From a virus: DNA of 22,350 nucleotides. The stretch lies in UHGV virus genome UHGV-0185671. One strand, given 5' to 3'. The position numbers and the translations under genes are program-made. Positions 3,253 to 22,350 of this stretch are shown here, piece by piece. Each line of letters opens with the position of its first letter. Position 1 is the first letter of the stretch. Below the pieces are notes generated by a model. The model did no database searches and was not told where the DNA came from. It saw only the letters and a program-made list of their open reading frames with translations.

Positions 3253-3265
3253 GAGAGAGTTAATC

Positions 3266-4177
3266 ATGGACCAAACCACCGACATTCAGGCTTCTGAAGA
3301 ATTAACCCTGCCCGGCAATCATGCAGCGGCATCTGCTGATGGCTTAGTTGTCGATAATGCCAACGACAACGCAGGTCAGGAAGAAGGCTTCGAGATTGTC
3401 CTGAAAGACGATGAGAAACCAAAACAAGACCCGGCAACTAATGCTGAATTTGCCCGTCGCCGCATCGAACGCAAACGCCAGCGTGAGCTTGAGCAGCAGA
3501 TGGAAGCGGTTAAGCGAGGGGAGTTGCCGGAGCACCTGCGGGTGAACCCTGAGTTACCAAAACAACCAGACCCTAACGATTATCTTTCCGAAGACGCACT
3601 GGCTAAGTACGACTATGACCAGAGCCGCGCACTGGCTGCCTTCCAGCAGGCAAACAGTGAATGGCAGATCAAGGCTATGGACGCACGAAGCCAGGCTGTC
3701 GCCGAGCAGGGCCGCAAAACTCAGGAGTTCACCCAGCAATCAGCGCAATACGTCGAGGCAGCCCGTAAGCACTACGACGCAGCGGAAAAGCTCAATATCC
3801 CTGACTATCAGGAGAAAGAGGACGCATTCATGCAACTGGTGCCGCCAGCAGTCGGTGCCGACATCATGCGCCTCTTCCCGGAGAAATCCGCTGCACTCAT
3901 GTATCACCTTGGTGCTAATCCTGAGAAAACACGCCAGTTGCTGGCGATGGACGGGCAATCCGCGCTGATTGAACTCACTCGACTGTCAGAACGTTTAACT
4001 CTCAAGCCTCGAGCCAAGCCTGTTTCAGAAGCCCCGTTACCTGATGAACCCATTCAGGGGCACGCTGTTGCTGCAAATATCTCTGCGATTGAAAAGCAGA
4101 TGGAAGCGGCAGCAAACAAAGGGGATGTAGAGACGTACCGCAAGCTCAAGGCGCAACTGAATAAAGGAATTCGATAA
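3266..4177 (+). CDS. Scaffolding protein (P22 gp8-like), 303 aa
   Basis: 303 aa, same length as P22 scaffold; acidic, helix-rich composition; RBS-like GAGAG upstream; sits between portal and coat. Confidence 0.88.
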
Positions 4178-5472
4178 TGGCATTAAATGAAGGTCAACTG
4201 GTCACATATGCTCTGGATGAAATCATCGAAACCGTCCAGAACCTGACGCCAATGGCGTCCAAAGTGACAAAATACACCCCTCCGGCAGAATCCATGCAAC
4301 GTTCAAGCAACACCGTGTGGATGCCTGTTGAGCAGGAAGCGCCAACTCAGACTGGATGGGATTTAACTGGCAACGCTACCGGTATTCTGGAACTGTCCGT
4401 GAAATGCAACATGGGCGATCCAGATAACGATTTCTTCGAGCTTCGTGCAGATGACCTGCGTGATGAGCGTTCTTACCGTCGCCGCATCCAGGCATCCGCC
4501 AAAAAACTGGCGAATAACATTGAGTCAGCAATTGCCAAACAGGCAACTGAAATGGGCTCGCTTGTTGTTCACGATACCCGCGCAATTGGTCCATCTACTG
4601 GCCTGTCTGGTTGGGATTTTGTGTCTGATGCAGAGCGCCTGATGTTCTCCCGCGAACTCAACCGCGACATGGGCATCAGTTACTTCCTGAACCCTGACGA
4701 TTACCGCAAAGCAGGCCGCAACCTGGTAGATGGCGACATCTTCGGGCGAGTTCCTGAAGAAGCGTATCGCAACGGTACTATTCAGCGTCAGATTGCTGGC
4801 TTTGATGAAATTCTTCGCTCACCGAAACTTCCGGCAGTTACCAAGTCAACCGCTACTGGTGTAACTGTTTCTGGTGCGCAGAAGTTTAAGCCGCAGGCAT
4901 ACACCCTTGATACCGATGGTAACAAAGAGAACGTCGACAACCGTGTTGCAACGGTGACCGTATCCTCCACCACCGGATTTAAGCGCGGCGACAAAATCAG
5001 CTTCACTGGTGTGAAGTTCCTGTCTCAGATGGCGAAGAATGTGCTGACTGATGACGCGACTTTCTCAATCACCCGTGTGATCGATAGTACTCACATCGAA
5101 ATCACGCCGAAGCCGATTGCGCTGGATGACGCGTCACTGACAAAAGAAGAGAAGGCTTACGCTAACGTAAACACCTCTCTTGCTGATACCACTCCGGTAA
5201 ACGTTCTGAACGTGGCAACAACCACCGCTAACGTGTTCTGGGCTGATGACTCAATCCGTCTGTTGTCTCAGCCGATCCCGGTAACCCATGAACTGTTTGC
5301 TGGCATGAAAACGTCTTCCTTCAGCATTCCAGGCATTGGTGTTAACGGCATCTTCGCAACGCAGGGTGATATCAACACTCTGTCTGGTAAGTGCCGTATT
5401 GCTGTGTGGTATTCAGCATGTGCTGTACGACCAGAGGCAATTGGTGTTGGTCTGCCTAACCAGACTGCGTGA
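4177..5472 (+). CDS. Major capsid (coat) protein (P22 gp5-like), 431 aa
   Basis: Translation MALNEGQ...GVGLPNQTA closely matches the P22 coat protein as I recall it (start and C-terminus); start overlaps scaffold stop (TAATG). Confidence 0.93.
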
Positions 5473-5478
5473 TAACCA

Positions 5479-5502
5479 GAGGGAGCTTCGGCTCCCTTTT
5501 TT
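5479..5502 (+). terminator. Intrinsic terminator/attenuator downstream of coat gene
   Basis: GGGAGC-TTCG-GCTCCC stem with tetraloop (5481-5496) followed by TTTTTT (5497-5502), 9 nt after the coat stop codon. Confidence 0.7.
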
Positions 5503-5516
5503 ATCTGGAGACAAGC

Positions 5517-5765
5517 ATGACACACATGATCTTTCGTCATGGCGACATGAAGAAGTGGAAAGGCGTTGGCTACGACTTTGAAATCGTGAAAGCCGAAGAG
5601 ATTAAGGAATATCTGGATGCTGGTTGGTTTGCACATCCCGATGACCTTCTGAAGGATGCTGCAGAGCCAGAGCCAGAGCCAGAGCCAGAGCCAGAAGAAA
5701 AACAGCGTAAAAAGCCTGGTCGAAAACCTAAGGCGGCAGCAGATGAACCTGACAACGAAGGGTGA
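5517..5765 (+). CDS. Hypothetical small acidic protein with (Glu-Pro)5 repeat and basic C-terminal tail, 82 aa
   Basis: ATG at 5517 preceded by GGAG (5507-5510); ORF contains tandem hexanucleotide (GAGCCA)x5 at 5664-5693 encoding [10 protein letters not shown]; 3' end overlaps gp4 start by 23 nt. Not part of the canonical P22 gene order as I recall it. Confidence 0.5.
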
Positions 5766-6243
5766 TTTAGTTCTTGCGGCATTACGTAAGCTCGGTGTGG
5801 CATCAAATGCCACGTTAACCGATGTCGAACCGCAGTCCATGGAAGATGGCGTCAATGACCTTGAAATGATGATGGCTGAATGGCTTGGCGGTGATGCGTC
5901 ACCAGGTATCAACGTTGGCTACATTTTCGCTGATGCAGATGTCGCTCCAGATCCTGGCGATGAACACGGCTTATCAAATAACGCTATCAATGCCGTCATT
6001 TTCAACCTTGCCTGCCGCATTGCTCCGGATTATGCGCTGGAAGCGTCTGCAAAACTTATAACCACTGCCAGATACGGGAAAGAGCGACTCGTCAAACTGT
6101 CTGCAATGGACAGAGCAAAAGCCGCAAAATGTAAGTCCGGTTATCCAAACCGTATGCCTGTTGGCAGTGGAAACCAGTTGGCGAAGTGGAACGGTTGGAA
6201 TTACTTCCACCGAAAGGAACCTTGCGATAACGGGAGCGAATAA
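5743..6243 (+). CDS. Head completion / tail adaptor protein (P22 gp4-like), 166 aa
   Basis: Translation from ATG 5743 ([33 protein letters not shown]...) matches the P22 gp4 N-terminus and length (166 aa) as recalled; the longer ORF-track start at 5656 is a repeat-derived extension. Confidence 0.85.
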
Positions 6244-7661
6244 TGCCGATTCAGCAACTTCCGCTTATGAAAGGTGTCGGCAAAGACTTTCGAAACGCCG
6301 ACTATATCGACTATCTGCCAGTGAATATGTTGGCTACACCCAAAGAAATCCTGAACAGCAGCGGATATCTTCGCTCATTCCCGGGCATTGCCAAACGTTC
6401 TGATGTGAACGGCGTATCGCGAGGCGTCGAATACAACATGGCGCAGAATGCTGTTTATCGCGTGTGTGGTGGCAAACTGTATAAGGGCGAAAGTGAGGTC
6501 GGTGATGTTGCCGGAAGTGGTCGCGTATCAATGGCGCATGGTCGAACATCACAGGCGGTAGGCGTTAATGGTCAACTGGTCGAGTATCGCTATGATGGCA
6601 CGGTTAAAACCGTCTCAAACTGGCCTACAGACAGCGGATTCACGCAGTATGAGTTAGGCTCAGTCCGCGACATTACGCGCTTACGTGGGCGTTATGCGTG
6701 GTCAAAAGACGGAACTGATTCATGGTTCATCACTGACCTTGAAGATGAATCACATCCTGACCGATACAGCGCACAATATCGTGCCGAGTCTCAGCCGGAC
6801 GGCATCATCGGTATCGGGACATGGCGAGACTTCATCGTCTGCTTTGGTTCATCGACTATTGAATATTTCTCCCTTACTGGCGCAACCACCGTTGGTGCCG
6901 CTTTGTATGTCGCACAACCATCGCTGATGGTGCAGAAAGGTATTGCCGGAACCTACTGCAAAACGCCATTCGCTGATTCTTATGCGTTCATCAGCAATCC
7001 GGCAACGGGTGCGCCGTCTGTATACATCATCGGCTCTGGTCAGGTATCACCAATCGCCAGCGCGAGCATTGAGAAAATCCTTCGTTCCTACACTGCTGAT
7101 GAACTGGCTGATGGTGTGATGGAGTCTCTGCGATTTGATGCGCATGAGCTGCTAATTATCCATCTTCCGCGCCATGTTCTGGTGTACGACGCATCTTCAA
7201 GCGCCAATGGTCCGCAATGGTGTGTGCTGAAAACAGGCCTGTATGACGATGTGTACCGCGCTATCGACTTCATTTACGAAGGCAATCAGATAACGTGCGG
7301 CGATAAGCTGGAGTCCGTGACCGGGAAATTGCAGTTCGATATCAGCAGCCAGTACGACAAGCAACAGGAACATCTGCTGTTTACTCCGCTGTTCAAAGCG
7401 GATAACGCAAGAGTGTTCGACCTTGAGGTTGAATCGTCAACTGGTGTTGCGCAGTACGCCGACCGCCTGTTCCTCTCTGCAACCACTGACGGCATCAATT
7501 ACGGGCGTGAGCAGATGATTGAGCAGAATGAACCGTTCGTTTACGACAAGCGTGTTTTGTGGAAACGAGTCGGGCGCATCAGGAAAAATGTCGGCTTCAA
7601 ATTGCGCGTTATCACGAAGTCACCTGTCACTCTGTCTGGCTGCCAGATAAGGATTGAGTAA
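6243..7661 (+). CDS. Tail accessory factor (P22 gp10-like), 472 aa
   Basis: 472 aa as in P22 gp10; start overlaps gp4 stop (TAATG); synteny gp4-gp10-gp26. Confidence 0.85.
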
Positions 7662-8362
7662 TGGCTGATTCGAATCTCAATGAGCCGGTAACAATTCAGG
7701 CTACACGACTCGATACATCAATCCTTCCACGCAATATATTCAGCCAGTCTTACCTGCTGTATGTCATAAATCAGGGAGCTGATGTCGCTGCAATTGCTGG
7801 GAAGGCAAATCAGGCTGGTCAGGGCGCTTACGATGCCCAGGTAAAAAACGATGAACAGGATGTCGAACTGGCTGATCACGACGCAAGAATCACCGCAAAC
7901 ACAAAAGCGATAAATCTACTTGAGGTCAGGTTAACAACTGCCGAAGGGAAGATAGTCGTACTGCGTAGCGATGTTGATTACTTGCTGGATGAGGTTATCG
8001 ATATTCAGGCGCATCTGGTCACTGTTGACCAAAGACTGGATGACGTAGAAAACGATGTCTCTGGCATTAAGAGTGATTACGTATCGAAAACCGTAACCGA
8101 ATCGCAGTCTCTTGCGTCACCGCTGGATGTAAAAACATCATATTCAGTTGATGGAATTCAGGTTGTTGGAGCAAGAAATACCGGATGGACTGCAGCCACA
8201 GGTACACCTCTTCTTGGCTCATTCAACGCTAACCAGTCATATACGGTCGGCACTACGTACACACAATCCGAAGTCGCGGCTCTCGCTACAGGTTTGCAGC
8301 AGGCGCGGCAGCGTATTCTGGCGCTTGAAACAGCACTTAGATTACATGGGCTGATTGACTGA
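7661..8362 (+). CDS. Tail needle protein (P22 gp26-like), 233 aa
   Basis: 233 aa as in P22 gp26; N-terminus [18 protein letters not shown] and C-terminus [13 protein letters not shown] closely resemble P22 gp26 as recalled; heptad-rich trimeric coiled-coil region. Confidence 0.9.
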
Positions 8363-8817
8363 TGATTACATTCAAACCAACGCGAAACATCGACCTGATA
8401 GAAGCCGTAGGAAATCACCCTGACATTATCGCTGGTAGCAACAACGGTGATGGATACGACTACAAACCTGAATGCCGTTACTTTGAGGTGAACGTGCACG
8501 GGCAGTTCGGCGGAATTGTTTACTATCAGGAGATTCAGCCGCTAACCTTTGATTGCCACGCCATGTACCTGCCAGAGATTCGTGGATTCAGCAAGGAAAT
8601 CGGGCTGGCGTTCTGGCGATACATTCTGACTAACACCACCGTTCAGTGCGTCACATCGTTCGCTGCGCGCAAATTCCGCCACGGTCAGATGTACTGCGCA
8701 ATGATTGGTCTTAAGCGTGTAGGAACCATCAAGAAATACTTCAAAGGCGTGGATGACGTGACGTTTTACAGCGCCACACGCGAAGAACTAATCGACTTCC
8801 TGAATCACGGGAGATAG
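8362..8817 (+). CDS. gp14-like virion protein, 151 aa
   Basis: Occupies the gene 14 position between tail needle and ejection proteins; start overlaps gp26 stop (TGATG). Assignment is by synteny only. Confidence 0.6.
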   Translation: MITFKPTRNIDLIEAVGNHPDIIAGSNNGDGYDYKPECRYFEVNVHGQFGGIVYYQEIQPLTFDCHAMYLPEIRGFSKEIGLAFWRYILTNTTVQCVTSFAARKFRHGQMYCAMIGLKRVGTIKKYFKGVDDVTFYSATREELIDFLNHGR

Positions 8818-8819
8818 CC

Positions 8820-9512
8820 ATGTTATATGCATTTAAGCTGGGCAGAAAACTGCGCGGCGAGGAACCTTATTGCCCTGAAAAAGGCGGGAAAGGTGGCTCC
8901 GATAAAAGCGCAAAGTATGCAGCAGAAGCTCAGAAGTATGCCGCAGACCTGCAAAATCAGCAGTTCAACACCATCATGAACAACCTGAAACCGTTTACTC
9001 CTCTGGCTGAGAAGTATGTCGGCAGCCTCGAGAACTTATCGTCTCTGGAGGGGCAAGGTCAGGCGCTTAACCAGTATTACAACTCTCAGCAGTACAAAGA
9101 CCTTGCAAGTCAGGCTCGTTATCAGAGTCTGGTGGCAGCGGAAGCAACGGGTGGATTAGGTTCCACCGCAACCAGTAATCAGTTAGCAACAATCGCACCA
9201 ACTCTTGGCCAGCAATGGCTATCTGGACAAATGAACAACTACCAGAATCTGGCAAATATTGGTCTTGGCGCTCTTCAGGGACAGGCAAACGCCGGGCAAA
9301 CATATGCCAACAACATGAGCCAGATTTCACAGCAAAGCGCGGCACTGGCGGCGGCAAACGCTAATAGACCTTCCGGCCTTCAATCTGCAATAGGCGGGGC
9401 TGCCTCTGGAGCAATTGCTGGAGCACAGCTTGGCAGCATTGTACCTGGTATTGGTACTGGTATTGGTGCCGCTGTTGGCGGCGGTCTTGGTCTGCTTGGT
9501 TCACTGTTTTAA
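8820..9512 (+). CDS. Ejection (internal virion) protein gp7-like, 230 aa
   Basis: Size (P22 gp7 about 229 aa), Gln/Ala-rich with a Gly-rich hydrophobic C-terminus; synteny with P22 genes 7-20-16. Confidence 0.8.
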   Translation: MLYAFKLGRKLRGEEPYCPEKGGKGGSDKSAKYAAEAQKYAADLQNQQFNTIMNNLKPFTPLAEKYVGSLENLSSLEGQGQALNQYYNSQQYKDLASQARYQSLVAAEATGGLGSTATSNQLATIAPTLGQQWLSGQMNNYQNLANIGLGALQGQANAGQTYANNMSQISQQSAALAAANANRPSGLQSAIGGAASGAIAGAQLGSIVPGIGTGIGAAVGGGLGLLGSLF

Positions 9513-9522
9513 GGGGTAATCA

Positions 9523-10902
9523 ATGGCTACGTGGCAACAGGGTATTAATTCTGGTGGTTTTCTGGCTGGCATCGGTACGCAAAACGAGAATGCACCAAAG
9601 GCAAGCGACATTAACGCAACGCTTGGTCTGATCCGCGAAAACAATGAGTTGGCTCGCTCAGGTGCAAATAACGTTGGTCTGACCGCGTTACGTGGTCTGG
9701 CTGGAGTTGCTGATATTTACAATCAGGAACAGCAACAGAAAGCGATTAGTGCATTCAATAAGGTTCACGCTGATGCATGGGCTTCTGGTGATCCATCGGG
9801 ACTATTTAAGTTTGCCCAGGAAAATCCAGCGTTTGTTGCACAGGCACAACAGGCATTTTCCGGTCTTAATGAGCAGCAACGCAACGATATGGGCGATTTA
9901 GCCATGAGAGCTAACGTCGCTCTTTCTCAGGGACCGGAAGCCTACAGTAAATTCATTACTGACAACAAGGACAGGTTAAATCACGTGGGTGCGAATGCTG
10001 ACTGGATGATTCAGGCTGGTATCCAGAATCCAGAGCAGCTATCACACATGCTGACTACTATGACGCTAGGGGCGCTTGGACCAGAAAAGGCGTTTGCTGT
10101 TCAGGACAAGATGGCTGGTCGTGAAATTGACCGAGGCAGGCTGGCAGAGACAATCCGCAGCAATCAGGCTGGTGAAGCACTAACAGCGCGTGGTCAGAAC
10201 ATCACGATGCGCGGTCAGGATTTAGCGATGCAGAGAGCATCAATGAAAGGGGCTGTTGGGAATAATGAGCGCACAGTTCAACTAGCAGACGGAAGAACTG
10301 TAACCGTAGGCGGGAAGCTTCATGGTGCTGGTGCTAACGCGTTCTACGAAGGTATAGACAATGAGGGGAACATGGTTCGCGTTCCTGCTGGCTCTATTGC
10401 CGCTCCGGCCACGTCGGCAGCAAGCGCGCAGAATTACGCAATGAAGAAAGATCTTGATGCAATTTCTGGTGCATCAATTGACGATCTTGGCTTCATGACT
10501 GGCATTACAGGCTCTTCAGGTTCTCCTGCTCTTGGTGCAGATATTCGTAGCCGTGCATCTGGTGGTTATCAGAGGAAACTATACAACGCTGCACAGCGAA
10601 TCCAAGGAAAGATGCAGAATCAGGGCATTGCAGCAGCCAGAGACATGGGGGCATCTGGTATCAACACCGTTGCAGAAGCAAAGATGTATTTTCAAGGTAT
10701 GCCACAGGTTGATTTCTCAAGCCCTGAAGCACTACAACAATCAATGCGCGACATTCAGCAATATACCGACAATTACAACCAGCAATATAACGTTAATGTC
10801 GGTAATGGCGGGGAAAAATCATCAAGGCAACAGCCAGCTACTCAGCAATCAGCAGGAGGTAGCTACACGTCAAAATCAGGCATTCAATTTACGGTGGAAT
10901 GA
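9523..10902 (+). CDS. Ejection protein gp20-like, 459 aa
   Basis: Position and size (P22 gp20 about 471 aa); synteny. Confidence 0.8.
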
Positions 10903-12731
10903 TGAAAGTAACTGCAAACGGTAAGACATTTACCTTCCCTGATGGTACGAGCACGGAAGATATTGGCACCGCCATTGATGAGTATTTTGCTGGTCAGGCT
11001 GTTCAGCAACAAACAGTTAATCAGGCCAATAATGAACCAGCACGTGAAGAACCATCATTGATGCAACAAGCTGGCGATTTGCTCACTGGTGGTCAAAGTG
11101 CAGGGCAAATTGCTGAACAGGCTGGTCGCGGTCTGGTAAACATACCATTTGACGTATTGCAGGGTGGCGCAAGTCTGATTAATGCAATCAGCCAGGGGCT
11201 TGGTGGCCCCAAGGTTTTGGATGATGTTTATCGTCCAGTAGACAGACCGACAGACCCCTACGCTCAAGCTGGAGAAACAATTGGCGGGTATTTAGTTCCA
11301 GGAGTTGGAACGGCAGGAAGCATGGCTATTGGATCACTGGCAGAGGCCGCAAATCAGAAAGGCGATTTCGCACAAAATGCAGCTAAAAATGCCGGAGTTA
11401 ACCTTGCCGCTCAGGGTGTTCTTTCCGCAGCAGCAAAGGGAATAGGGCGTGGAATTACTGCTGTTCGTGGCGAAATATCACCCGCAGATCAGCAATTGCT
11501 CAAGCGTGCCGCTGCGGCAGATGTACCAGTTATGACATCGGATGTAGTTCCGCCAAAAACAAAACTTGGCAATCAACTGCAGGGTTACTCAGAAGGAGTC
11601 ATCGCTGGGACTGGACCAATGAGAGCCGCACAGCAGGATGCTAGAACCAAGCTTGTTAATCGCTTCACCGAAAAATACGGCGACTACGATCCATCTGTAG
11701 TAGTTGATAGTCTAAAGTCAGGCGTTGCAAGGGAAAAATCGTTAGCCAAGTCAAAACTAAACAACCTGTCAGGAAGAATGGTTGGAAAGCCAGTTGATAC
11801 AAGTGGCGCCATAAGAGCTATAGACGGAGCAGTAAACGAACTTGGGAAACTTAAAGGTGTTTCTGACACCCAGACCATTTCTGCGCTTAATGATTATAAG
11901 AATGCCATTCAGGAGATAACAAATGGAGATGATGCCTTTGAGTTACTTGATAAGCTGAGAACTCAGTTCCGCATTGACGTAAAAGGCGATCGTACAGTTC
12001 TGCCATCAATGTCGCAAACAATGGTCGACAGGGTCTACAACTCGCTAACCAATAGCCTTAGTAAATCTATAGCGAAAGGACTTAGCCCAAAAGATGCTTC
12101 AGCATGGAGAGCAGGAAAAGCTGATTATGCAAAAATGGCAACACATGCAACTCAGACGCGCCTTAAAAACGTTCTAAACAAAGGAGATTTAACTCCCGAG
12201 GCTGTAAATACCATTGTTTATGGACAATATGGGTCAGATATAGCTCGATTGTACGGGAAACTCGATCAAAAAGGTAAAGACATGCTAAGGGCTGCATATA
12301 TCAGCAAAATAGCTGACAAGGTAGGTGACAGCACTCAGAAAATGATGATCGAGCTTGGCAAGCTGCAAAAACAAGCAAATGGTCAGGTGTTTAAAACTGT
12401 ATTTGGCGGGAAGAACGGAAAAGAGATAGAGGGAATGTTATCTATTCTCGATGCTACCAAAAGAGCATCTGAGGCTAATGTTGTGACGAAGACTGGCATG
12501 ACACTCGCGCCTTTGGTAAGGGTTATTGGTAACCTAAAAACCGGAGGCGCGCTATTGGCTGGGGAAACAGGGATTGGCCTTATGTCTAGGGTTTATGAAA
12601 GCACTATGGCTAGGAATGCGCTCTTACGTCTGGCAAACACTAAAGCTGGAACGCCAGCTTATGAAAGAGCGTTAAGCAAAGCTGCAAATGTCATCAGACC
12701 GCTGCTTGCCACTGAGGTAACACAGCAGTGA
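10899..12731 (+). CDS. Ejection protein gp16-like, 610 aa
   Basis: Position and size (P22 gp16 about 609 aa); start overlaps gp20 stop (ATGA); last gene of the rightward virion block. Confidence 0.82.
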
Positions 12732-12748
12732 CTAAATGCCATGGATGG

Positions 12749-13000
12749 CTATTTCCCTAGCACATGAAACAATGTTTGCTTTAATTCCACCCATACAATT
12801 ATGACCACTATAGACAGACAAAAGAAACTGAATGCATTGGCATCACGATCGAAACCTTCTCCGGCACTAAATCCGTAAAAGGTCATAAAAAATATAAAAA
12901 TTGCGCACTTTGCAACGTTTATAAATTTTTTCTTCACGCCAACCTCCTTAGTTTTGTGCAGGATACCAGATGATTTGGAGTGAGATAAAGGTTTGTCCAC
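12749..13000 (-). CDS. Hypothetical small membrane protein, 83 aa
   Basis: Minus-strand ORF with two hydrophobic stretches (AIFIFFMTFYGF; FFCLSIVVIIVWV); AT-rich; convergent with gene 16 and downstream of the PIN gene. Could be a third member of the leftward accessory operon or a sieA-like remnant; weakly supported. Confidence 0.35.
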   Translation of the reverse strand: MDKPLSHSKSSGILHKTKEVGVKKKFINVAKCAIFIFFMTFYGFSAGEGFDRDANAFSFFCLSIVVIIVWVELKQTLFHVLGK

Positions 13001-13064
13001 TTTTGGCTATAGCTTTATGTATCCGTGACGGATGTAATTATCACGGATGCATAAAAATTATATT

Positions 13065-13613
13065 TTAGTGTAATCTCTGATCGTCTGAATCTTGTAAGAA
13101 CTCCATGAGACTTTGAACCGGAATTGGTTCTATTGATGATAATGTGAACACAGGAATATTGAGACTTTTGCAACGCTCAAACACTCCCTTATCATGAGTC
13201 CATACCTCGTCAGCATTAATTGCTCTTGCAATTGCTATTATTTGTCTGTCAAACTTAATTTTGTTTGCTGTACCTTCTGTGCTAATTTTCCTTAATTCTT
13301 TTAATGTTGGTATCGATGCGCATTCAATAGCAGCCAACTCATCAAATGATACAGTCTCGAAGCATGATAACGATTTGATAACATTCAGTTTTTCTTGTTG
13401 GTAATCTTTATGGATTCCAACTAAAAACTCCGCCAATACAGGAGTTGGAACGATGATTGTCCCGTTCTTGTTATCTATCCGATCAACAAGAGCTTCTGCT
13501 CTTCTTTTGGCATCTGGAATCTCAGAACCAAGTATAGGGTCAGATAATCTATAATCGTGTTCTATATCTGATAGTAGGTATACCAGAATATTGGTATCTA
13601 AAATTACTCGCAA
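13065..13613 (-). CDS. PIN-domain nuclease (VapC-like toxin/effector), 182 aa
   Basis: N-terminal MRVILDTNILVYLL beta-strand with Asp6, then Glu62 (VLAEF), Asp122 (FDRQIIAIARA) and Asp141 (WTHDKG), the canonical four-acidic PIN arrangement. TTG start at 13611-13613 with a GAGGA RBS 7 nt upstream; start overlaps the stop of the upstream gene by 10 nt. Confidence 0.75.
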   Translation of the reverse strand: MRVILDTNILVYLLSDIEHDYRLSDPILGSEIPDAKRRAEALVDRIDNKNGTIIVPTPVLAEFLVGIHKDYQQEKLNVIKSLSCFETVSFDELAAIECASIPTLKELRKISTEGTANKIKFDRQIIAIARAINADEVWTHDKGVFERCKSLNIPVFTLSSIEPIPVQSLMEFLQDSDDQRLH

Positions 13614-14323
13614 TTTATCTTCCTCAGAGTCCTAAGGATTGAATCAACATCGCGTTCCTCGGACCACTGATCTCCAGGAACTTGCTTGATAGCATTAATA
13701 GCATCCTTGAGTGATGATTTTTTGAGCAATGCAAATGAAGTTATTTTTAGTTTCTTTAGCTCCCATTTGTTGTTCTTTTTTTCCCAGCACCCATCTCCTT
13801 TAACCCTAATATATTTGAATAGATGGGACCCAAGAGCTGCTGCCAAATCAGGGGTTGCCTCGCACTTGAATGTTTCACCGTTGACTCCCTCAATACGCAC
13901 AGGTATTGAGTTGTCTTTTCCGCCAACACTGTATAGCCTTCCTTGAACTTCTGACGTTTTTGTTATGAGTAAAGGGATTGGCTCCTTTTTTACTCGCGGG
14001 AATGCGATAATGGTTGAGTGGTTTCGTCCGAGTAGTTTCGCTGAAAAACCATCATGTTCCAGTAAATTAACAATTTTTTGATACGCAGGTGATTTCTCTT
14101 TGGCTGAGAGAGAGGCCCTTGCTATGACAGCGTTATAACAAATATCATTATCGACCCATGCATTTAAGTCAGCCGATCCTTCACTTACACAGTCGAAGTG
14201 AACAGAATCTGCAGAACCGTATAGATCTACGAGAGCAGACATATACTTGACCAACTTAGCCATTGACAGCTGGCTAGGGGTGGTTCCGTCAAGTTTTAAT
14301 GTGAGTCCATTGCTTTTTTTCAT
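13604..14323 (-). CDS. Uncharacterised protein partnered with PIN nuclease (candidate sensor/antitoxin), 239 aa
   Basis: ATG at 14321-14323 (minus); long uninterrupted ORF; stop overlaps the PIN start, suggesting translational coupling; no recognisable DNA-binding or catalytic motif by eye; AT-rich relative to flanking virion genes. Confidence 0.65.
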   Translation of the reverse strand: MKKSNGLTLKLDGTTPSQLSMAKLVKYMSALVDLYGSADSVHFDCVSEGSADLNAWVDNDICYNAVIARASLSAKEKSPAYQKIVNLLEHDGFSAKLLGRNHSTIIAFPRVKKEPIPLLITKTSEVQGRLYSVGGKDNSIPVRIEGVNGETFKCEATPDLAAALGSHLFKYIRVKGDGCWEKKNNKWELKKLKITSFALLKKSSLKDAINAIKQVPGDQWSEERDVDSILRTLRKINCE

Positions 14324-14372
14324 TTGTCATCACGCGAGCCAATATCGATATGGTTAACTGTACGTCATAAGC

Positions 14373-14627
14373 CTATAACTTACTTTTGCTATAAATATTT
14401 TTCAGCGTTTCAAAGACCATCTTCTTAACAACGTCAGATTGCTCATCCGCGACTCGCTCAGCTTCGTCTCGATAGCCTACAATTGATGATGGCTTTGAGA
14501 GAGCATCCTGAACGATTTGTAATAACTCAGAGTTCATTGACCTTCCGTTAGCCTCTGCTCTTAATTTCAATTTTTCTCTTACTTCCAAAGGCATACGGAA
14601 GTTAAAGTGCGGATCGTCTCTAGCCAT
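14373..14627 (-). CDS. mnt: Mnt repressor (ribbon-helix-helix), 84 aa
   Basis: Translation MARDDPHFNFRMPLEVREKLKLRAEANGRSMNSELLQIVQDALSKPS... closely matches P22 Mnt as recalled; ATG at 14625-14627 (minus). The longer ORF-track call (to 14918) is an upstream extension across the promoter region. Confidence 0.9.
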   Translation of the reverse strand: MARDDPHFNFRMPLEVREKLKLRAEANGRSMNSELLQIVQDALSKPSSIVGYRDEAERVADEQSDVVKKMVFETLKNIYSKSKL

Positions 14628-14649
14628 GCCATCACCCCAAGTTAGTGTA

Positions 14650-14701
14650 TTGACATGATAGAAGCACTCTACTATATTCTCAATAGGTCCACGGTGGACC
14701 C
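14650..14701 (+). promoter_or_regulatory. immI control region: Pant promoter (-35 TTGACA 14650-14655), Arc operator (ATGATAGAAGCACTCTACTAT, 14655-14675), Mnt operator palindrome (GGTCCACGGTGGACC, 14686-14700); divergent Pmnt overlaps
   Basis: Sequences seen directly; they match the P22 Arc operator and the symmetric Mnt operator described in the literature on P22 immI. Confidence 0.85.
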
Positions 14702-14717
14702 ATGTTGTGAGGTGAAT

Positions 14718-14876
14718 ATGAAAGGAATGAGCAAAATGCCGCAGTTCAATTTGCGGTGGCCTAAAGAAGTATTGGATTTGGTGCGCAAGGTAGCTGAAGA
14801 GAACGGGCGATCTGTTAACTCTGAGATTTACAAGCGAGTGATGGACAGCCTGAAGAGAGAGGGGATAACGGTATGA
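14718..14876 (+). CDS. arc: Arc repressor (ribbon-helix-helix), 52 aa
   Basis: Translation MKGMSKMPQFNLRWPKEVLDLVRKVAEENGRSVNSEIYKRVM... near-identical to P22 Arc as recalled; GAGGTGA RBS upstream of ATG 14718. Confidence 0.92.
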   Translation: MKGMSKMPQFNLRWPKEVLDLVRKVAEENGRSVNSEIYKRVMDSLKREGITV

Positions 14877-15097
14877 AGGTATCTTATATAGATTGCGACT
14901 TCTGTCATGCATCCACATTGACAGATAAAGAAGCTGTTATGTTCACTAATATTGACAGGAAAGCTATTGGTTATCGAGAAGTCCACATCTGTAATAAGTG
15001 CATTGTTGATGCTTGGGAAGCACTAAACGGTAAAGATAAGAATTTTTATCTCAGAGCAACTGTAGAAGGTAGGCACTTTAAAGAAGTGAAAAGTTGA
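14873..15097 (+). CDS. Hypothetical Cys4 zinc-ribbon protein, 74 aa (insertion between arc and ant)
   Basis: ATG overlaps arc stop (ATGA at 14873-14876); two CxxC pairs (CDFC and CNKC) about 29 residues apart; markedly AT-rich compared with arc and ant. Confidence 0.55.
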   Translation: MKVSYIDCDFCHASTLTDKEAVMFTNIDRKAIGYREVHICNKCIVDAWEALNGKDKNFYLRATVEGRHFKEVKS

Positions 15098-15159
15098 AGC
15101 CCCAACTGCGGTAACAGTCAGGGCTTCGGTTGTCAGTAAATCTTTGGAGAAAAACCAAC

Positions 15160-16062
15160 ATGAATAGTATAGCAATTTTAGAAGCAGTGAACACCTCTTA
15201 CGTACCATTCAACGGTCATCAAATTATCACCGCCATGGCTGCCGGAATTGCATATGTTGCGATGAAGCCAATCGTTGAAAACCTTGGAATGAGCTGGTCA
15301 ACGCAGCAAACAAAACTCATGAAGCAGATTAGCAAATTCAACTGTGTTCATATGAACATGGTTGCCGCTGATGGGAAGCTTCGTAAGCTACTCTGCCTTC
15401 CTTTGAAGAAGTTAAATGGATGGCTGTTCAGCATCAACCCTGAGAAAGTTCGTGCTGACATCCGCGATAAACTGATTCAGTACCAGGAAGAATGCTTTAC
15501 TGTGCTGCATGACTACTGGACAAAGGGAGAGGCAGCAAATGCACGTAAGAAAACATCTGTTGATGACAGGACTCCGCTTCGTGATGCTGTAAATATGTTA
15601 GTCAGCAAAAAGCATCTAATGTACCCAGAAGCTTATGCAATGATTCATCAGCATTTCAATGTGGAAAGTATTGAAGAGCTTGATGCATCTCAGATACCGC
15701 TAGCCGTAGAGTACATCCACAGGGTAGTGCTTGAAGGTGAGTTCATTGGCAAACAAGAGAAGAAAGCAAACGAGCTTTCTGCAAAAGAAGCAAACAGCCT
15801 TGTATGGTTATGGGATTATGCCAACCGTTCACAGGCATTATTCCGCGAACTGTATCCGGCGCTAAAACAAATTCAATCGAACTATTCCGGCAGATGCTAC
15901 GACTACGGTCATGAGTTCTCGTATGTTATCGGAATGGCGAGAGACGTTTTAATCAATCACACACGAGATGTTGATATCAATGAGCCAGACGGACCAACGA
16001 ATCTTTCCGCATGGATGAGACTGAAGAATAAAGAATTACCTCCTTCAGTACATAACTACTGA
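15160..16062 (+). CDS. ant: Antirepressor Ant, 300 aa
   Basis: Translation from ATG 15160 ([29 protein letters not shown]...) matches P22 Ant N-terminus as recalled; GGAG RBS upstream; the ORF-track TTG start at 15130 is rejected. Confidence 0.88.
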
Positions 16063-16081
16063 CAGATAACCAACGCAACGA

Positions 16082-16104
16082 CCCAGCTTCGGCTGGGTTT
16101 TTTT
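16082..16104 (+). terminator. Intrinsic terminator downstream of ant
   Basis: CCCAGC-TTCG-GCTGGG stem-loop (16082-16097) followed by TTTTTTT (16098-16104). Confidence 0.75.
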
Positions 16105-16162
16105 ATGCCCAAAATTCACCGTAGCCATGCTGCGGCGATTCCTTGTATCTGGAGCAAATTAA

Positions 16163-18301
16163 ATGACAGACATTACAGCCAATGTTGTAGTGAGCATGCC
16201 TTCGCAACTCTTCACTATGGCGCGTTCTTTTAAAGCCGTAGCTAATGGCAAAATTTATATCGGTAAAATTGACACTGACCCGGTAAATCCTGATAACCAG
16301 ATTCAGGTCTATGTTGAGAACGAAGATGGCTCTCACGTTCCTGTTGCACAGCCAATCGTCATCAATGCCGCAGGGTATCCAGTATATAACGGACAGATTG
16401 CCAAGTTCGTAACTGTGCAAGGCCATTCTATGGCTGTTTATGATGCGTATGGTACGCAGCAGTTCTATTTTCCGAATGTGCTGAAGTATGACCCTGATCA
16501 GCTACGGCAGCAATTAGAAGACCCGGATGGAGCTAAAAAATATCCTGAATTGCAGATATCTCGGTGGAGGGACGATTGTGATGTAAGAGGGTGGGGGGCA
16601 AAAGGCGATGGTATAACAGATGATACATCTGCATTGATCCTGGCTGCAGAATATGCACGAGAATCATCCAGAACATTACGAGCGGAAGGTAATTTTATTA
16701 TTACGGAGACATTAAATCTTCGTAATGTCAGCCTCGAAATGACCAATGCTGTTTTTACCATATCCCACTCAGGAATAGGAGTATTGCTTGGCGGGAATGC
16801 ATCAAACCCTAACAACCCAAAGCAAAACTTCGGAGCGATTATCAGAAATTCTGGCATTTCATCTGAAACGACACCGGATATTCGTATTATCGGGGCAAAA
16901 GGGCAGCATATTAACATTGAGCGTTGCGACTACTTACAGTTATATGCAAATTATAATGCTTCGGTGGCATCGACGGATTATTCAATAGCATACTCAACCT
17001 TTAACCTGAAAAAGGTCGATACAATTCATTTTCTTGGCGTTGAGAACGGATGGATAAATGAAAATTATTTTTATCTGAATCGTACGAATAATATCATTTT
17101 CGCTGATAATCCATATCATCATAACCACAATAAGTTTTATGGTGGAACTATGGAGGGGGAAGGTAAAATTGACATTCAAAGAGGTGATAACAATCACTTC
17201 TATGGGTTTCGTTTTGAACGATATCCATCATCCCCAACTAACCAACAGTTGATAATTAACTTTGGTGAATATACGTGGAATAACTCAATTGAAGCTACAT
17301 GGCTTTCATCTCCTGCGTATACAAATGAGCCATACAATCCATCACCTTACACTTATGTCGAGGTAACTGATAATGGCAAGGGGAATGCAGTATTTCATAT
17401 TCAGGAAAATATATCCGATGAAGTAACATTGTTTTCTTTAAATGCTAACACCCCATTTATATCTAGTGCTAACAATGGAGAGGTTGGTGCATTAGCATAT
17501 CAAACGGATGTTGATGGTTTATATAATATCCGTCACCTGGTTTCTTCTAAGTTTGCTTTTATGAGGAATTTTGGGCTCTTATGGGAATCTGGAGATATAC
17601 CTGTAAGAAATGGTGATATGTTTACATTCTCAGCAGATGCGGCATCGTTTCGTATTTACCTATATGCATTAGATAGAGATGGGAATGTCATAACCTCACA
17701 AACAGAAGCCATAACTTCTTCTATGCAATGGGATTCTGCCAACCATAGGTATGCCACTGCTGTTAATATTTCTTCAATTAAGATCAGGATTAATAATGAA
17801 GGAGTTCCAGTTAGTGCAGTTCGTTTAGCTGTGTATTCTGGTGGTAATGTAGTGAATACTGCATTTTCATGGCTATGCTTAACTGGGAGATATTACAAAA
17901 ATAGCACATCCTTGCCAAGGAAAAGTAAAAATACTTTTACTTTAAAACAAGGGAAAGCAATTACTTATTATAGTGATACTGATATTAGTATGGCTAACAT
18001 TGGTTCAGGAATTACCTGTTATAAAACCGATTTATCTGAACTCAAAATTAATCTTGTAAGGGGCAGGTATGTAGTGAAATCGATTTCAGGTAGTGAAATA
18101 TATGTATACCAAGGAACAATCACTTATTACCCTCCATTCAGTGATATCAAATTGGTATATACGGATGGGATTGAAAATAAATTATTAGATGTGCAAAGCA
18201 TCTCTTCAGGAAAGATTACTCTTGCAGATACAGTACCATCAGCTATATCTGCAGGCGATTTTGTAGATGTTATTGTTACAAAGACGAAATCTATTTTATG
18301 A
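16163..18301 (+). CDS. Tailspike protein (P22 gp9-like head-binding N-domain fused to a divergent beta-helix receptor-binding/depolymerase domain), 712 aa
   Basis: N-terminal about 115 aa ([17 protein letters not shown]...VLKYDPDQ) matches the conserved P22-family tailspike head-binding domain; downstream [11 protein letters not shown] motif is typical of right-handed beta-helix (pectate-lyase-like) depolymerases; the 3' two-thirds is AT-rich. Confidence 0.88.
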
Positions 18302-18335
18302 TGTGTTTATTTATCCTTATGTTAAAGGAGTGATA

Positions 18336-18623
18336 ATGGATATAACACCCTTCCTTCATGCGCTTTGTGCTGTTGTCGCACAGATACTGGTTGGTCTTTT
18401 TACCGGAAACTGGGTTTACGGAGCGATAGCCGGCTGTACGTTCTTCATTGCGCGTGAACACACCCAGGCAGAATATCGCTGGATTGAAATGTTCGGACAT
18501 GGCAAGCGGATTAACATGCCGTGGTGGGGCGGTTTTGACCCACGCGCGTGGGATGTAGCAAGTCTGATGGATTTTTCTGTGCCGGTGGTGGCGTGTCTGC
18601 TGGTCTGGCTGTTGAGCCGTTAA
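18336..18623 (+). CDS. Hypothetical small membrane protein, 95 aa
   Basis: ATG 18336 preceded by AAGGAG; two hydrophobic segments (LCAVVAQILVGLFTG...; VPVVACLLVWLL); lies immediately after tailspike where P22 carries gtr O-antigen conversion genes. Confidence 0.55.
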   Translation: MDITPFLHALCAVVAQILVGLFTGNWVYGAIAGCTFFIAREHTQAEYRWIEMFGHGKRINMPWWGGFDPRAWDVASLMDFSVPVVACLLVWLLSR

Positions 18624-19082
18624 ACATAAGAATCCGCAGTGTCTTGCCATGACAAGTTACAGCGGATGGCTGGTGAACTATCGATAGTGCGAGTATTGAA
18701 TGATTTCCAGCCGTTACTGATTGTACGCATTTTTGTATGAGAGGATTTGCACCACCTCGCATTGACCATCCATGACTGTACGCCACTATCTCTAGGACTG
18801 CTATGTGACAGCAGCAGACAATGCTGACATCCCTGTGCACCAATCAACACGGAGCAAGCCAGTCAGTTTATGAACGGAGTGAGTTGTCAAAAGTTGTTGC
18901 CTGCTTCCATTGGCATCGGAAATTTTTGAGTGTGCACACTCTAAGCTACTGTTGCTTCATAAGGTTGTATTGATATTACTGATACATTAGGTTATGTTTG
19001 AGAGACAACATTAAGGATTATTTTTACTTTTTGTTTACGACAAATATTATATAATTTTATTAATAACTCTATTTAGTAAGGT

Positions 19083-19859
19083 ATGGTTATGAAATTGTAT
19101 TCTGAAAGCTCAGATGAAAAAGATGCATTATATCTGCTTTCTTATATCAATGATGTTATTTTGCCTGCTTCAGTCGATTTTTTTGAAAAACTAGAAGATA
19201 ATTCCTTGAGATTGCATCACGTTTTTTCATTTAATGCAATTCTTGCTCATGCGACAGATTATATAGTTTATATCGTTAACAAAAAAAACAGCATAAAAAG
19301 GATTGATTTCCTGAAAGGTTTTGATGAAAGATACTCTGTAGATGGTTGTTGTTTTATTAATAATAAATTTGAACTTTTAGATGCTGTGAATAATTCCTTT
19401 AAGCATGTTGAGTTAAAAAAGGAACGATATCCTGAACTGATAAAAAGATATGGCGATCTATCATTCCATTGCTTGAAAGAAGATTCTGGAAAAGTTTTTT
19501 TTAGAACGTCTGGATATCAATTTGATTATTCTAGAGTGGTTCTAAGACCAATTGCTAAAATATTCGATTGTGGACTCAAAGATAATAATGATGTTGATGA
19601 TTTTATAAACGGAAGAATATTTGGGAGTTGTGGTTATGGACATTTTCTATATGACTATGAACCATATGATTCAATTGATAGAATGATAGACTACTGTAAC
19701 GCACAATGTATGGATTGTGGTGAGTATGCGGATGACTGCGATTGTCATAATTATGAATACAATAAAGAAAAAGGCAAATATAATCCTGACTTAGATCCTA
19801 ACTTCGATTTTGATGATGTTATGTCAAATATTAGTGGCACAAGGGAATGGAGTAAGTAA
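19083..19859 (+). CDS. Hypothetical Asp/Cys-rich protein, 258 aa (AT-rich cargo)
   Basis: Long ORF in a very AT-rich block with an AT-rich upstream region; C-terminus has clustered Cys/His/Asp (CGYGHF...CNAQCMDCGEYADDCDCH), suggesting metal binding; no family recognised. Confidence 0.55.
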   Translation: MVMKLYSESSDEKDALYLLSYINDVILPASVDFFEKLEDNSLRLHHVFSFNAILAHATDYIVYIVNKKNSIKRIDFLKGFDERYSVDGCCFINNKFELLDAVNNSFKHVELKKERYPELIKRYGDLSFHCLKEDSGKVFFRTSGYQFDYSRVVLRPIAKIFDCGLKDNNDVDDFINGRIFGSCGYGHFLYDYEPYDSIDRMIDYCNAQCMDCGEYADDCDCHNYEYNKEKGKYNPDLDPNFDFDDVMSNISGTREWSK

Positions 19860-20369
19860 TATTTTTTCTAAAAGGTACATTGATTGATGGAATGATTAGG
19901 CTTTTATTCTAGAGCGATTTAATGGCATCTTTGAGCAGGTGATAGGCGGTACAAAATGATTGATGAACCATTACCGGACGATTGAAGAAACATTTAAGCA
20001 GGTGCTCAAAGAAGTATTCGAGACGTTGGTGTGAAGGCTGATGTTGATGTTAATTTAAAACTCCCCACGGTTCTATTAAAGTAGATAATACTTGCTATTG
20101 ATGTAAGGAGTGTAGGTGCCCGCTATTCGCTCACATCGGATCTTTAGTGGCACATAGCTGTCTGCTATTTGCTAGGAGCGTACGCTGTTATTTTCGTTGT
20201 CCATGTCCGATAACGCAAAATTTTATTTAGTAGATTCACGGGGGGGGTGGCGGGTACTTTCATGACTGGTTGGGGAGTAAATGTAAATTAGAGGGCTGAT
20301 ATAAAACAGTCCGGAATGTAGGGGTATCATCCTACCAATCGAATCAGAACTACTAAGGAAAATAAGGCA

Positions 20370-21188
20370 ATGACTAAACATATTATGCACCCCGACCATG
20401 TCGCTGAGATTTGCAGCCAAATCAAAAAATCAAACAACAGAGATTTTATCTATGATAGCTTTCGCCAATTGCTAAGCCAGTTGCCGATGGGATTTCATGA
20501 TGTAACCGCCACGACTGTATGGCGATCGAGGAAAACTGATGTGGCCCACCAGGAAGGGTTCGATCATGTTACCGATATTATTTATCCACCTGCGCAGTAT
20601 GCCAAAACCGGAAGGCTAAATACGGATGGGGTGTCTATTTTATACGCATCTATCAGCAATCATGGATGCCTGGCAGAAATAGGAGCCCAGCCGGGGGATA
20701 AAGTGCATGTGTCCGCATTCACCCTGAAACCAGAGCAGAGACTGCATTGCGGCTTTTTTGGCGATATTGTTAGGGCACATAAATGGAGTAGCGAAGATTT
20801 TACACAGGTACAAAAAATCCTTGAGCCGTATACGGAAGCGCAAAAAACCAGTATTTTCATGATAGACAGTTTCCTTGCTGAAACACTTGCTGATAGCCGA
20901 GCGAAGGAAAACCATTACCTGCATACCACAACACTTGCTGATGTCATCCGCAATGGGAAAAATGCGTTGGATGCTATCGTTTATCCTGGAGTGGAGTCCT
21001 CCGGCGCCAAGAACTATGCAATCCACTGCGACGCAATGATTAAATTCAATATTGCAGATATGTACCTGCTAGAGATAACCAAAAAGCATCCCTACGGGCT
21101 GTATGAATGGCGGATACTTAAGCAATTAGAAAGCTATGATGATGGCCGAATTATCTGGAAAGAGCCATGCTGTGCGAATGTTGCATGA
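20370..21188 (+). CDS. Probable RES-domain protein (toxin-like NAD-targeting family), 272 aa
   Basis: Motif GRLNTDGVSILYASISNHGCLAEI (Arg82 ... Glu103) resembles the conserved Arg/Glu core of RES domains, with a later Ser-containing segment (YPGVESSG); recognised by eye only. Confidence 0.5.
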   Translation: MTKHIMHPDHVAEICSQIKKSNNRDFIYDSFRQLLSQLPMGFHDVTATTVWRSRKTDVAHQEGFDHVTDIIYPPAQYAKTGRLNTDGVSILYASISNHGCLAEIGAQPGDKVHVSAFTLKPEQRLHCGFFGDIVRAHKWSSEDFTQVQKILEPYTEAQKTSIFMIDSFLAETLADSRAKENHYLHTTTLADVIRNGKNALDAIVYPGVESSGAKNYAIHCDAMIKFNIADMYLLEITKKHPYGLYEWRILKQLESYDDGRIIWKEPCCANVA

Positions 21189-21387
21189 TGTGTTGCTGCG
21201 CGAGGAAAGGTATATGATATTTCTTTTGAGTGCTGTCAGCAGCACTCAATAACTGCGCATAATTGTAGATCCTGTAGAGTGAACTCAGTCCGGATTGTTC
21301 TATCTGAGCAATCGTTAAACCACTTGGTAAGGCTGGTTCCCGCTTCTCGCTCATAACAGACATTCACTTCAGTTATGGCAGAAAGGT

Positions 21388-21624
21388 ATGCGTGCTTGGT
21401 GTGGGGAAGCAGTGAAAGAAAAAGAAGACTGCTGCGCCATTTGTCGTCACTGCTATCTTCTTATTGCTTATGAAGGTCGTAGTGAGGCACACAAAGCTTT
21501 GCGAATTACAAGGCCTTGTGCTTCTCTGGAGTGCGACAGGTTTGATGACAAAAAATTAGCGCAAGAAGACAAAAATCACCTTGCGCTAATGCTCTGTTAC
21601 AGGTCACTAATACCATCTAAGTAG
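21388..21624 (+). CDS. Small hypothetical ORF in lambda b-region-like sequence adjacent to attP arm, 78 aa
   Basis: ORF only; Cys-rich; the surrounding DNA appears to me to be lambda-derived sequence flanking attP. Coding status uncertain. Confidence 0.25.
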   Translation: MRAWCGEAVKEKEDCCAICRHCYLLIAYEGRSEAHKALRITRPCASLECDRFDDKKLAQEDKNHLALMLCYRSLIPSK

Positions 21625-21750
21625 TTGATTCATAGTGACTGCATATGTTGTGTTTTACAGTATTATGTAGTCTGTTTTTTATGCAAAATCTAATTTAATA
21701 TATTGATATTTATATCATTTTACGTTTCTCGTTCAGCTTTTTTATACTAA
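21600..21750. mobile_element. Prophage right attachment site attR: lambda-type attP P-arm plus 15-bp core GCTTTTTTATACTAA (21736-21750) joined to host B-prime sequence
   Basis: Core sequence and upstream arm (arm-type Int sites GGTCACTAAT about 21601-21610 and inverted ATAGTGACTG about 21632-21641, AT-rich spacer) match the lambda attP P arm as recalled; after the core the sequence continues as CTTGAGCGAAACGGG, the E. coli attB right side. Confidence 0.85.
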
Positions 21751-21840
21751 CTTGAGCGAAACGGGAAGGTAAAAAGACAAAAAGTTGTTTTTAATACCTT
21801 TAAGTGATACCAGATGGCATAGCGCCATCTGGCAGAGTGA

Positions 21841-22317
21841 TTAACTAAACATCGCAGTAATCGAGGCGCTTGCCAGAGAATGGAAATGGACGTTAAACCC
21901 GACCATCGCGCCGCTGGCACCTTCATCGACATCAATACGTTCTACATCCAGCGCGTGAACGGTAAAAATGTAGCGATGGGTTTCGCCTTTCGGCGGCGCT
22001 GCACCATCGTACCCGGTTTTACCAAAGTCGGTACGCGTCTGCAAAACGCCGTCTGGCATTGCTACCAGACCAGAGCCAAACCCTTGCGGTAATACGCGGG
22101 TATCAGCGGGTAAGTTAACAACTACCCAGTGCCACCAGCCGGAACCGGTTGGCGCATCCGGGTCGTAACAGGTGACAACAAAACTTTTCGTTCCCGCAGG
22201 AACATCATCCCACGCCAGATGCGGTGAAATATTATCGCCATCGTAACCCATGCCGTTAAAGACATGACGATGTGGCAACTTATCGCCATCGCGCAGATCG
22301 TTACTGATGAGTTTCAT
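21841..22317 (-). CDS. ybhB: Host PEBP-family (UPF0098) protein YbhB, 158 aa
   Basis: Translation MKLISNDLRDGDKLPHRHVFNGMGYDGDNISPHLAWDDVPAGTKSFVVTCYDPDAPTGSGWWHW... matches E. coli YbhB as recalled; gene lies beside attB-lambda in the gal-bio interval. Confidence 0.85.
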   Translation of the reverse strand: MKLISNDLRDGDKLPHRHVFNGMGYDGDNISPHLAWDDVPAGTKSFVVTCYDPDAPTGSGWWHWVVVNLPADTRVLPQGFGSGLVAMPDGVLQTRTDFGKTGYDGAAPPKGETHRYIFTVHALDVERIDVDEGASGAMVGFNVHFHSLASASITAMFS

Positions 22318-22350
22318 GGACCCTCCTTTCTTGTTTGCAGAAAGTGTAGC

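Follow-up and report, generated by a model that had tools for sequence, protein, structure and literature searches.

The DNA analysed here, called the window, is the whole 22,350-nt stretch of virus genome UHGV-0185671. It carries a P22-like virion module, an immI region, a tailspike gene followed by cargo genes, a lambda-type attachment site and host chromosomal DNA that includes ybhB. The phage genes, given in window coordinates, are the following.

1–12731, plus strand: P22-like late operon, comprising the 3′ part of terL, portal, scaffold, coat, gp4, gp10, gp26, gp14, gp7, gp20 and gp16 (open reading frames, megablast, E9 RefSeq annotation)
12749–14323, minus strand: variable cargo of three genes where P22 has sieA/orf59a (PHROGs, Pfam, P22 layout)
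14373–16062: immI region, with mnt (minus strand), arc, a 74-aa ORF, the sar antisense RNA and ant (Pfam and Rfam)
15092–15159, minus strand: sar antisense RNA (Rfam RF00262, 94.5 bits)
16163–18301, plus strand: tailspike, whose N-terminal head-binding domain is of the P22 type and whose receptor-binding part has a low GC content (Pfam Head_binding, 3.9e-67)
18336–18623, plus strand: 95-aa membrane protein (phrog_1443, 3e-57)
19083–19859, plus strand: 258-aa cargo protein with a Cys/His- and Asp-rich C-terminus (ORF; GC 0.27–0.33)
20370–21188, plus strand: solitary RES-domain cargo protein of 272 aa (Pfam PF08808, E 1.2e-8, 35.5 bits against a cut-off of 23.2)

The P22-like virion module

The late operon includes the genes of the ejection proteins gp7, gp20 and gp16. 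When positions 65–16500 were compared by megablast, identity was 95% to the E. coli Lederbergvirus phages APC_JM3.2, IME10 and CurroJimenez/Bas106, and about 80% to P22. Within immI, Pfam matches were obtained to Arc, Repressor_Mnt, P22_AR_N and P22_AR_C. The gene order of P22 (BK000583), that is, gene 16, the sieA slot, mnt-arc-sar-ant, gene 9, the moron slot and attP, is reproduced in the window. A Lederbergvirus virion module is recognised by homologous and syntenic head, ejection and tailspike genes and by the location of immI between genes 16 and 9, and all of these are found here. A first-pass annotation of this DNA had proposed a P22-like virion module, and the Lederbergvirus matches, the Pfam domains, the Rfam sar hit and the synteny with P22 bear this out. 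The tailspike region from 16800 to 18400 has a GC content of 0.34–0.37.

Between arc and ant lies a Cys-rich ORF of 74 aa (14873–15097, plus strand). P22 is without it: there, sar and ant come immediately after arc.

The three genes in the sieA slot encode a membrane protein of 83 aa (phrog_21338), a PIN-domain protein of 182 aa (13065–13613, minus strand; Pfam PIN 4e-10, phrog_21691) and a protein of 239 aa (13604–14323, minus strand; phrog_19868), whose gene overlaps the PIN gene by 10 nt. PHROGs assigns no function to any of these three families. The PIN-domain and 239-aa proteins may form a toxin/antitoxin-like or exclusion cassette, for which they are candidates.

The attachment site and its junction with the host chromosome

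To the right of the RES gene, the window contains the following features. Those from the P1 arm site to the common core were assigned by exact match to lambda.

21340–21515, plus strand: diverged homologue (about 85%) of lambda b-region DNA left of attP (lambda alignment)
21516–21750, plus strand: lambda-identical segment, which spans tI/sib, the whole P arm of attP and the common core
21555–21590, minus strand (the strand of int transcription): tI terminator/sib retroregulation hairpin, identical to lambda 27543–27578
21599–21613, plus strand: P1 arm site
21618–21630, plus strand: H1
21631–21644, plus strand: P2 arm site
21644–21656, plus strand: X1
21664–21678, plus strand: X2, overlapping the Fis site
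21696–21708, plus strand: H2
21734–21740, plus strand: core-type site C, CAGCTTT
21736–21750, plus strand: 15-bp common core GCTTTTTTATACTAA
21734–21754, plus strand: recombinant core region C-O-B′, the phage/host junction (lambda and K-12 alignments)
21748–21754, plus strand: B′ core-type site TAACTTG, which follows K-12 attB
21751–21840, plus strand: host intergenic DNA, the B′ arm of attB (K-12 alignment)
about 21802–21824: ybhB terminator, a hairpin 3′ of the ybhB stop codon, ccagatggca-n-gccatctgg, read directly from the sequence
21841–22317, minus strand: ybhB, host gene for a PEBP-family "kinase inhibitor" (ORF, Pfam PBP 3e-42, annotation)

The region 21190–21850 was compared with phage sequences by megablast. 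Nucleotides 27324–27742 of lambda (J02459) align with 21340–21754 of the window (93.3% identity over about 415 nt, E 5e-174). The differences in this 420-column alignment, 22 mismatches and 3 gaps, all lie left of 21516. From there to the end of the core both sequences are the same, as lambda 27504–27738 and window 21516–21750 align without gaps at 235 of 235 positions, and the first mismatch found leftward from the core is at 21515. Lambda-like DNA starts at 21340, and b-region homology therefore extends for about 400 nt leftward from the core. In the attP comparison, an identity of 205/205 was obtained for lambda, HK629, HK630 and others. A chance resemblance to the lambda att site is ruled out by the 235/235 identity together with the E value of 5e-174. 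Among the records that are 100% identical to lambda across attP is MW057783.1, a sequence of 48,361 bp named "Campylobacter phage CJLB-4", which looks like contaminating lambda DNA that was submitted under another name.

As 21516–21750 is identical to lambda without gaps, the P-arm sites P1, P2, H1, H2, X1 and X2 (Fis) stand at lambda spacing. The Int-binding features "int 1" and "int 2" of the lambda record map onto P1 and P2, and the core is likewise covered. The names of the IHF (H1, H2), Xis (X1, X2) and Fis sites are used here as we take them to stand in the established attP map (Landy, 1989).

On the minus strand, the RNA of the sib/tI segment is predicted to fold into a hairpin of 22 pairs (−24.3 kcal/mol, z −4.4) that is followed by a run of U residues. 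The records of HK97 and HK022 annotate the homologous stretch as the sib site. Location of the sib/tI hairpin distal to attP is a feature of the lambda-type integration module, and in the window the hairpin is found in this position, on the attR side.

Past the core, the lambda C′ site TAAGTTG is absent and the sequence of K-12 attB begins; identity between 21736–22350 and K-12 (NC_000913) is 98.0%. Phage homology stops, and homology to K-12 attB starts, exactly at the core (21736–21750). The alignments identify the right end of the prophage as a lambda attR (P-O-B′) joined to the Escherichia chromosome at ybhB. The first-pass annotation had described this end as a lambda attP P arm and core followed by host sequence and ybhB, and the alignments agree with that description in every part, with 235/235 identity to lambda and with K-12 attB from 21751 onward. 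The comparison with lambda attP and K-12 attB that it proposed thus gave a lambda-like site whose core coincides with the host junction, and not the divergent site or displaced core that would have spoken against the claim. The interval 21600–21841, to which it had assigned the attachment site, begins at the P1 site and ends at the first base of the ybhB ORF, which belongs to the stop codon. Insertion at the lambda attB is established on the ybhB side by the B′ site TAACTTG and by ybhB itself at 21841–22317; the window covers this side of attB only, and ybhC and attL lie outside it. The right prophage boundary is in this way fixed to the base, with the core at 21736–21750.

No tRNA gene or fragment of one was detected in the window, and the junction is the intergenic core of lambda, not one derived from a tRNA 3′ end. 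Integration at a tRNA gene was rejected because the window holds no tRNA gene. The statement in the earlier annotation that P22 itself uses a tRNA gene is correct: the gene is thrW (PMC2629481), and the attP and int of P22 are its own and different. Its description of the phage as a mosaic is equally apt, as one prophage combines a lambda-type attachment site with a virion module of the P22 type.

Cargo between the tailspike and attR

A cargo of about 3 kb, made up of three plus-strand genes, separates the tailspike gene, which ends at 18301, from the lambda-like DNA, which starts at 21340. In P22, gtrCBA occupies the corresponding interval from gene 9 to attP. The gene calls (18336–18623, 19083–19859 and 20370–21188) match the cargo region of 18336–21190 previously delimited. 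To have called it the usual moron slot is fair, as the gtrCBA genes of P22 and the morons of E. coli E9, Huey and phiHS3 occupy the same position. The genes found in this slot in relatives are one for an O-antigen polymerase in E9 and a UmuD-like gene in Huey; for phiHS3, an O-antigen ligase has been described (bioRxiv 10.64898/2026.05.19.726188). A scan of 18200–21900 for promoters and terminators gave counts not above those in shuffled sequence.

The 95-aa gene directly follows the tailspike gene, and a longer reading of it overlaps the tailspike stop codon. In many unrelated prophages of E. coli, DNA about 89% identical to it adjoins the 3′ end of tail-fibre genes, which makes it a small mobile gene associated with receptor-binding proteins. 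NCBIfam gave no match to its product.

The 258-aa protein gave no match in Pfam, PADLOC, PHROGs, NCBIfam or PDB sequences. Its gene is probably an independent moron, since it was not found beside the RES homologues in the four other contexts inspected. Neither this gene nor the RES gene had a megablast match among 5,426 complete E. coli genomes.

For the RES protein, 17 clusters of homologues were found, all of them from Enterobacterales (Photorhabdus, Salmonella, Citrobacter, K. aerogenes and Xenorhabdus), and some of these clusters carry the NCBI name "RES family NAD+ phosphorylase". The protein itself had no match in PADLOC, PHROGs or NCBIfam, and a match to EngB among PDB sequences (E 0.003) was judged spurious. 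Taking into account that RES domains occur in type II toxin–antitoxin pairs of the Xre-RES type, the neighbourhood of the gene was inspected. No Xre/DUF2384-type antitoxin gene is located 5′ of it: the gap of 510 nt upstream contains no plus-strand ORF of 40 aa or more, and the 258-aa protein encoded beyond that gap is without a Pfam domain. Likewise, no Xre-type neighbour was found for the homologues in four contexts (Salmonella, Photorhabdus and two metagenome contigs), where they are solo genes beside integrases, a GmrSD_N-domain gene, a NERD/helicase giant gene or a DUF4365-TPR gene. Islands flanked by integrases are thus among these contexts, and the GmrSD_N and NERD/helicase neighbours are of a defence type. 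A classical Xre-RES pair was rejected because no antitoxin gene accompanies the RES domain. Tentatively, the 258-aa protein and the solitary, NAD+-targeting RES protein can be put forward as candidates for an undescribed prophage function in abortive infection or exclusion, a reading to which we give a rather low probability. The cargo genes are the only parts of the window with discovery potential.

Origin of the prophage end and comparison with known systems

Fourteen contigs were retrieved by searching for exact copies of the RES protein. Across the cargo, attR and host DNA, the sequence is 100% identical in seven metagenome assemblies (ENA, JGI, Logan) that come from different projects and assemblers. 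Exact full matches to the window were found in metagenome assemblies only, and not in isolate genomes. In all the long contigs that contain the prophage, the sequence breaks off in terL, no more than about 35 nt from window position 1; three independent contigs (L006, L007 and L008) begin near window positions 1–40. This shared break suggests a boundary, due to a repeat or to strain variation, that is common to co-resident P22-like phages.

In the longer contigs, the host flank reads ybhB-bioA-bioB-bioF-bioC-bioD-uvrB. Among 5,426 complete E. coli genomes, none exceeds 97.7% identity to this ybhB-bioABFCD-uvrB segment over its 7.3 kb (11382–18657 of contig L006); identity to the type strain of E. 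albertii is 87.7% at the DNA level. When GTDB genomes were scanned with BioA, E. albertii was the sole Escherichia among the matches listed. Given how densely E. coli has been sampled, the flank appears unusually divergent for this species. It may come from a divergent or under-sampled Escherichia lineage, or represent an introgressed allele or a passenger brought with the prophage by lateral transduction, which is a weaker possibility than the one raised for the cargo genes. P22-like phages package by headful, and the neighbouring bio-uvrB region is therefore a possible candidate for lateral transduction, a process that has been reported for phiHS3 (bioRxiv 10.64898/2026.05.19.726188).

The same architecture occurs elsewhere. 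In E. coli E9 (NZ_CP104500), the interval from ybhC to ybhB is occupied by a P22-like prophage that is complete. Its integrase of 356 aa is identical to lambda Int at 351 of 356 positions, and the prophage also has an excisionase and an attL (B-O-P′) with the lambda P′ arm. The isolated Lederbergvirus Huey (PQ850609), which forms turbid plaques on K-12 (PMC11990801), combines a tailspike and a moron with a lambda-type attP, an Int (353/356 versus lambda) and Xis; in its attP the core is identical, P1, H1, P2 and X1 are conserved, and the P′ arm is that of lambda. In the GenBank record of Lederbergvirus vB_EcoP-720R6 (ON470605), the tailspike gene, attR, ybhB and bioABFCD follow each other in this order. 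Finally, the P22-like phage phiHS3 has been reported to lysogenise upstream of ybhC and to excise, with lateral transduction (bioRxiv 10.64898/2026.05.19.726188).

A lambda-type P arm adjoins ybhB in 1,913 of 5,426 complete E. coli genomes (about 35%). To count those in which it stands with a P22-like phage, a composite probe was used, of which about 50% was virion DNA (genes at 6243–11462 and the ant/head-binding region, 15090–16501) and about 50% host-side DNA (attR-ybhB together with 5.8 kb from the bio-uvrB flank). The probe was covered to at least 80% in one place in 44 of the 5,426 genomes. The P22-like virion module and attR-ybhB-bio were found in one place in at least 60 of them, which is a lower bound and corresponds to about 1% of complete genomes; all 60 rows carry P22-type virion genes and bioA. 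The association of a P22-like virion with a lambda att site at ybhB is already known from RefSeq genomes, GenBank phages and recent literature. That P22-like lambdoid phages swap integration specificities has been established (PMC2629481), and Bobay et al. (2013; PMC3603311) offer nothing specific to the ybhB att site.

Taken together, we consider it about 90% probable that the window is the right-hand 22 kb of a P22-like lambdoid prophage that carries a lambda int-xis-attP-sib cassette and occupies the attB at ybhC/ybhB. Nothing in the window contradicts this explanation. P22-like phages are lambdoid phages, and integration cassettes are routinely swapped among them. Int, with IHF bending the P and P′ arms into an intasome, would have exchanged strands between attP and attB within the 15-bp core, to leave attR (P arm, core and B′) at the tailspike/cargo end and attL (B, core and P′, with int and xis) at the opposite end. 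Integration would also part sib/tI, on the attR side, from int, on the attL side. As sib/tI is moved away from int, the int mRNA of an induced prophage should escape RNase III-dependent decay, as occurs in lambda, and after infection sib would limit the synthesis of Int from the early leftward operon. Int and Xis, together with Fis and IHF, would then excise the phage by means of the intact P1, P2, X1, X2, H1 and H2 sites and attL. The genes between the tailspike and attR would be strain-specific morons located in the slot of P22 gtrABC.

A left prophage end with lambda-type int, xis and attL, and the ability to excise, are very likely in view of attR and of the relatives, since the interval from the tailspike to attR shows no sign of a second element or of a remnant. 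A quite different history would be that attR is what remains of an earlier lambda-like prophage, to which P22-like DNA was joined by homologous recombination or tandem insertion; the element would then be compound or defective and lack a matching lambda-type integrase. The left prophage end lies outside both the window and the contigs, donors are common (the 35% of complete E. coli genomes with a lambda-type P arm at ybhB), and the lambda-like b-region homology reaches 400 nt left of the core, all of which would fit such a remnant. Nonetheless, the interval from the tailspike to attR is free of lambda structural, tail-fibre and b-region genes, of IS elements and of a second att site, and the genes stand in exactly the order of an intact P22-like phage. 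Moreover, lambda Int and attP are known from complete P22-like prophages and from a free phage, so that no special history is needed, and even under a remnant the cassette would have come by recombination, which is the way mosaics arise anyway. We therefore regard a remnant as improbable. Far less probable still is that the junction was created during metagenome assembly, by fusion of a P22-like contig with the attR of an unrelated lambda lysogen. The restriction of exact window matches to metagenome assemblies would allow for this, but the seven assemblies from different projects and assemblers, identical over cargo, attR and host DNA, exclude a chimera for practical purposes because they are independent, and the same join is present in isolate genomes and in a GenBank phage record.

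With a swapped lambda cassette as the preferred explanation, the integration specificity of this prophage is that of lambda, and the window illustrates the exchange of modules among lambdoid phages in its standard form. Competition of the prophage with phages of the lambda family for attB is to be expected, as is excision by a lambda-type Int/Xis. The module swap is real, and it is ordinary: it provides a clean annotation and leaves current understanding unchanged.

Compared with lambda (J02459), the window shares sib/tI, P1, H1, P2, X1, X2/F, H2, C and the core at 100% identity, and a lambda lysogen has the same host site (attB, ybhC/ybhB) and the same P-O-B′ junction. Left of about 21516 identity drops to about 85%, and the likeness to lambda ends at 21340. 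Instead of the head and tail genes of lambda, the phage in the window carries a podovirus virion module of the P22 type. P22 (BK000583), the type Lederbergvirus, has the same gene order from the terminase to att, but nucleotide identity to the window is only about 80%. The P22 map shows a distinct attP next to a different int, whereas the att site of the window is that of lambda; furthermore, the moron slot of P22 is occupied by gtrCBA, and its gene 16 is followed by sieA, whereas the window has other genes in both slots. The prophage of E9, Huey, vB_EcoP-720R6 and phiHS3 share both architecture and integration site with the prophage of the window, and the virion module of E9 is 95–96% identical. 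The cargo of E9, Huey and phiHS3 differs from the 95-aa, 258-aa and RES genes found here, as does the receptor domain of the tailspike. In Huey, the P arm is only 86% identical to that of the window, whereas the latter is 100% lambda.
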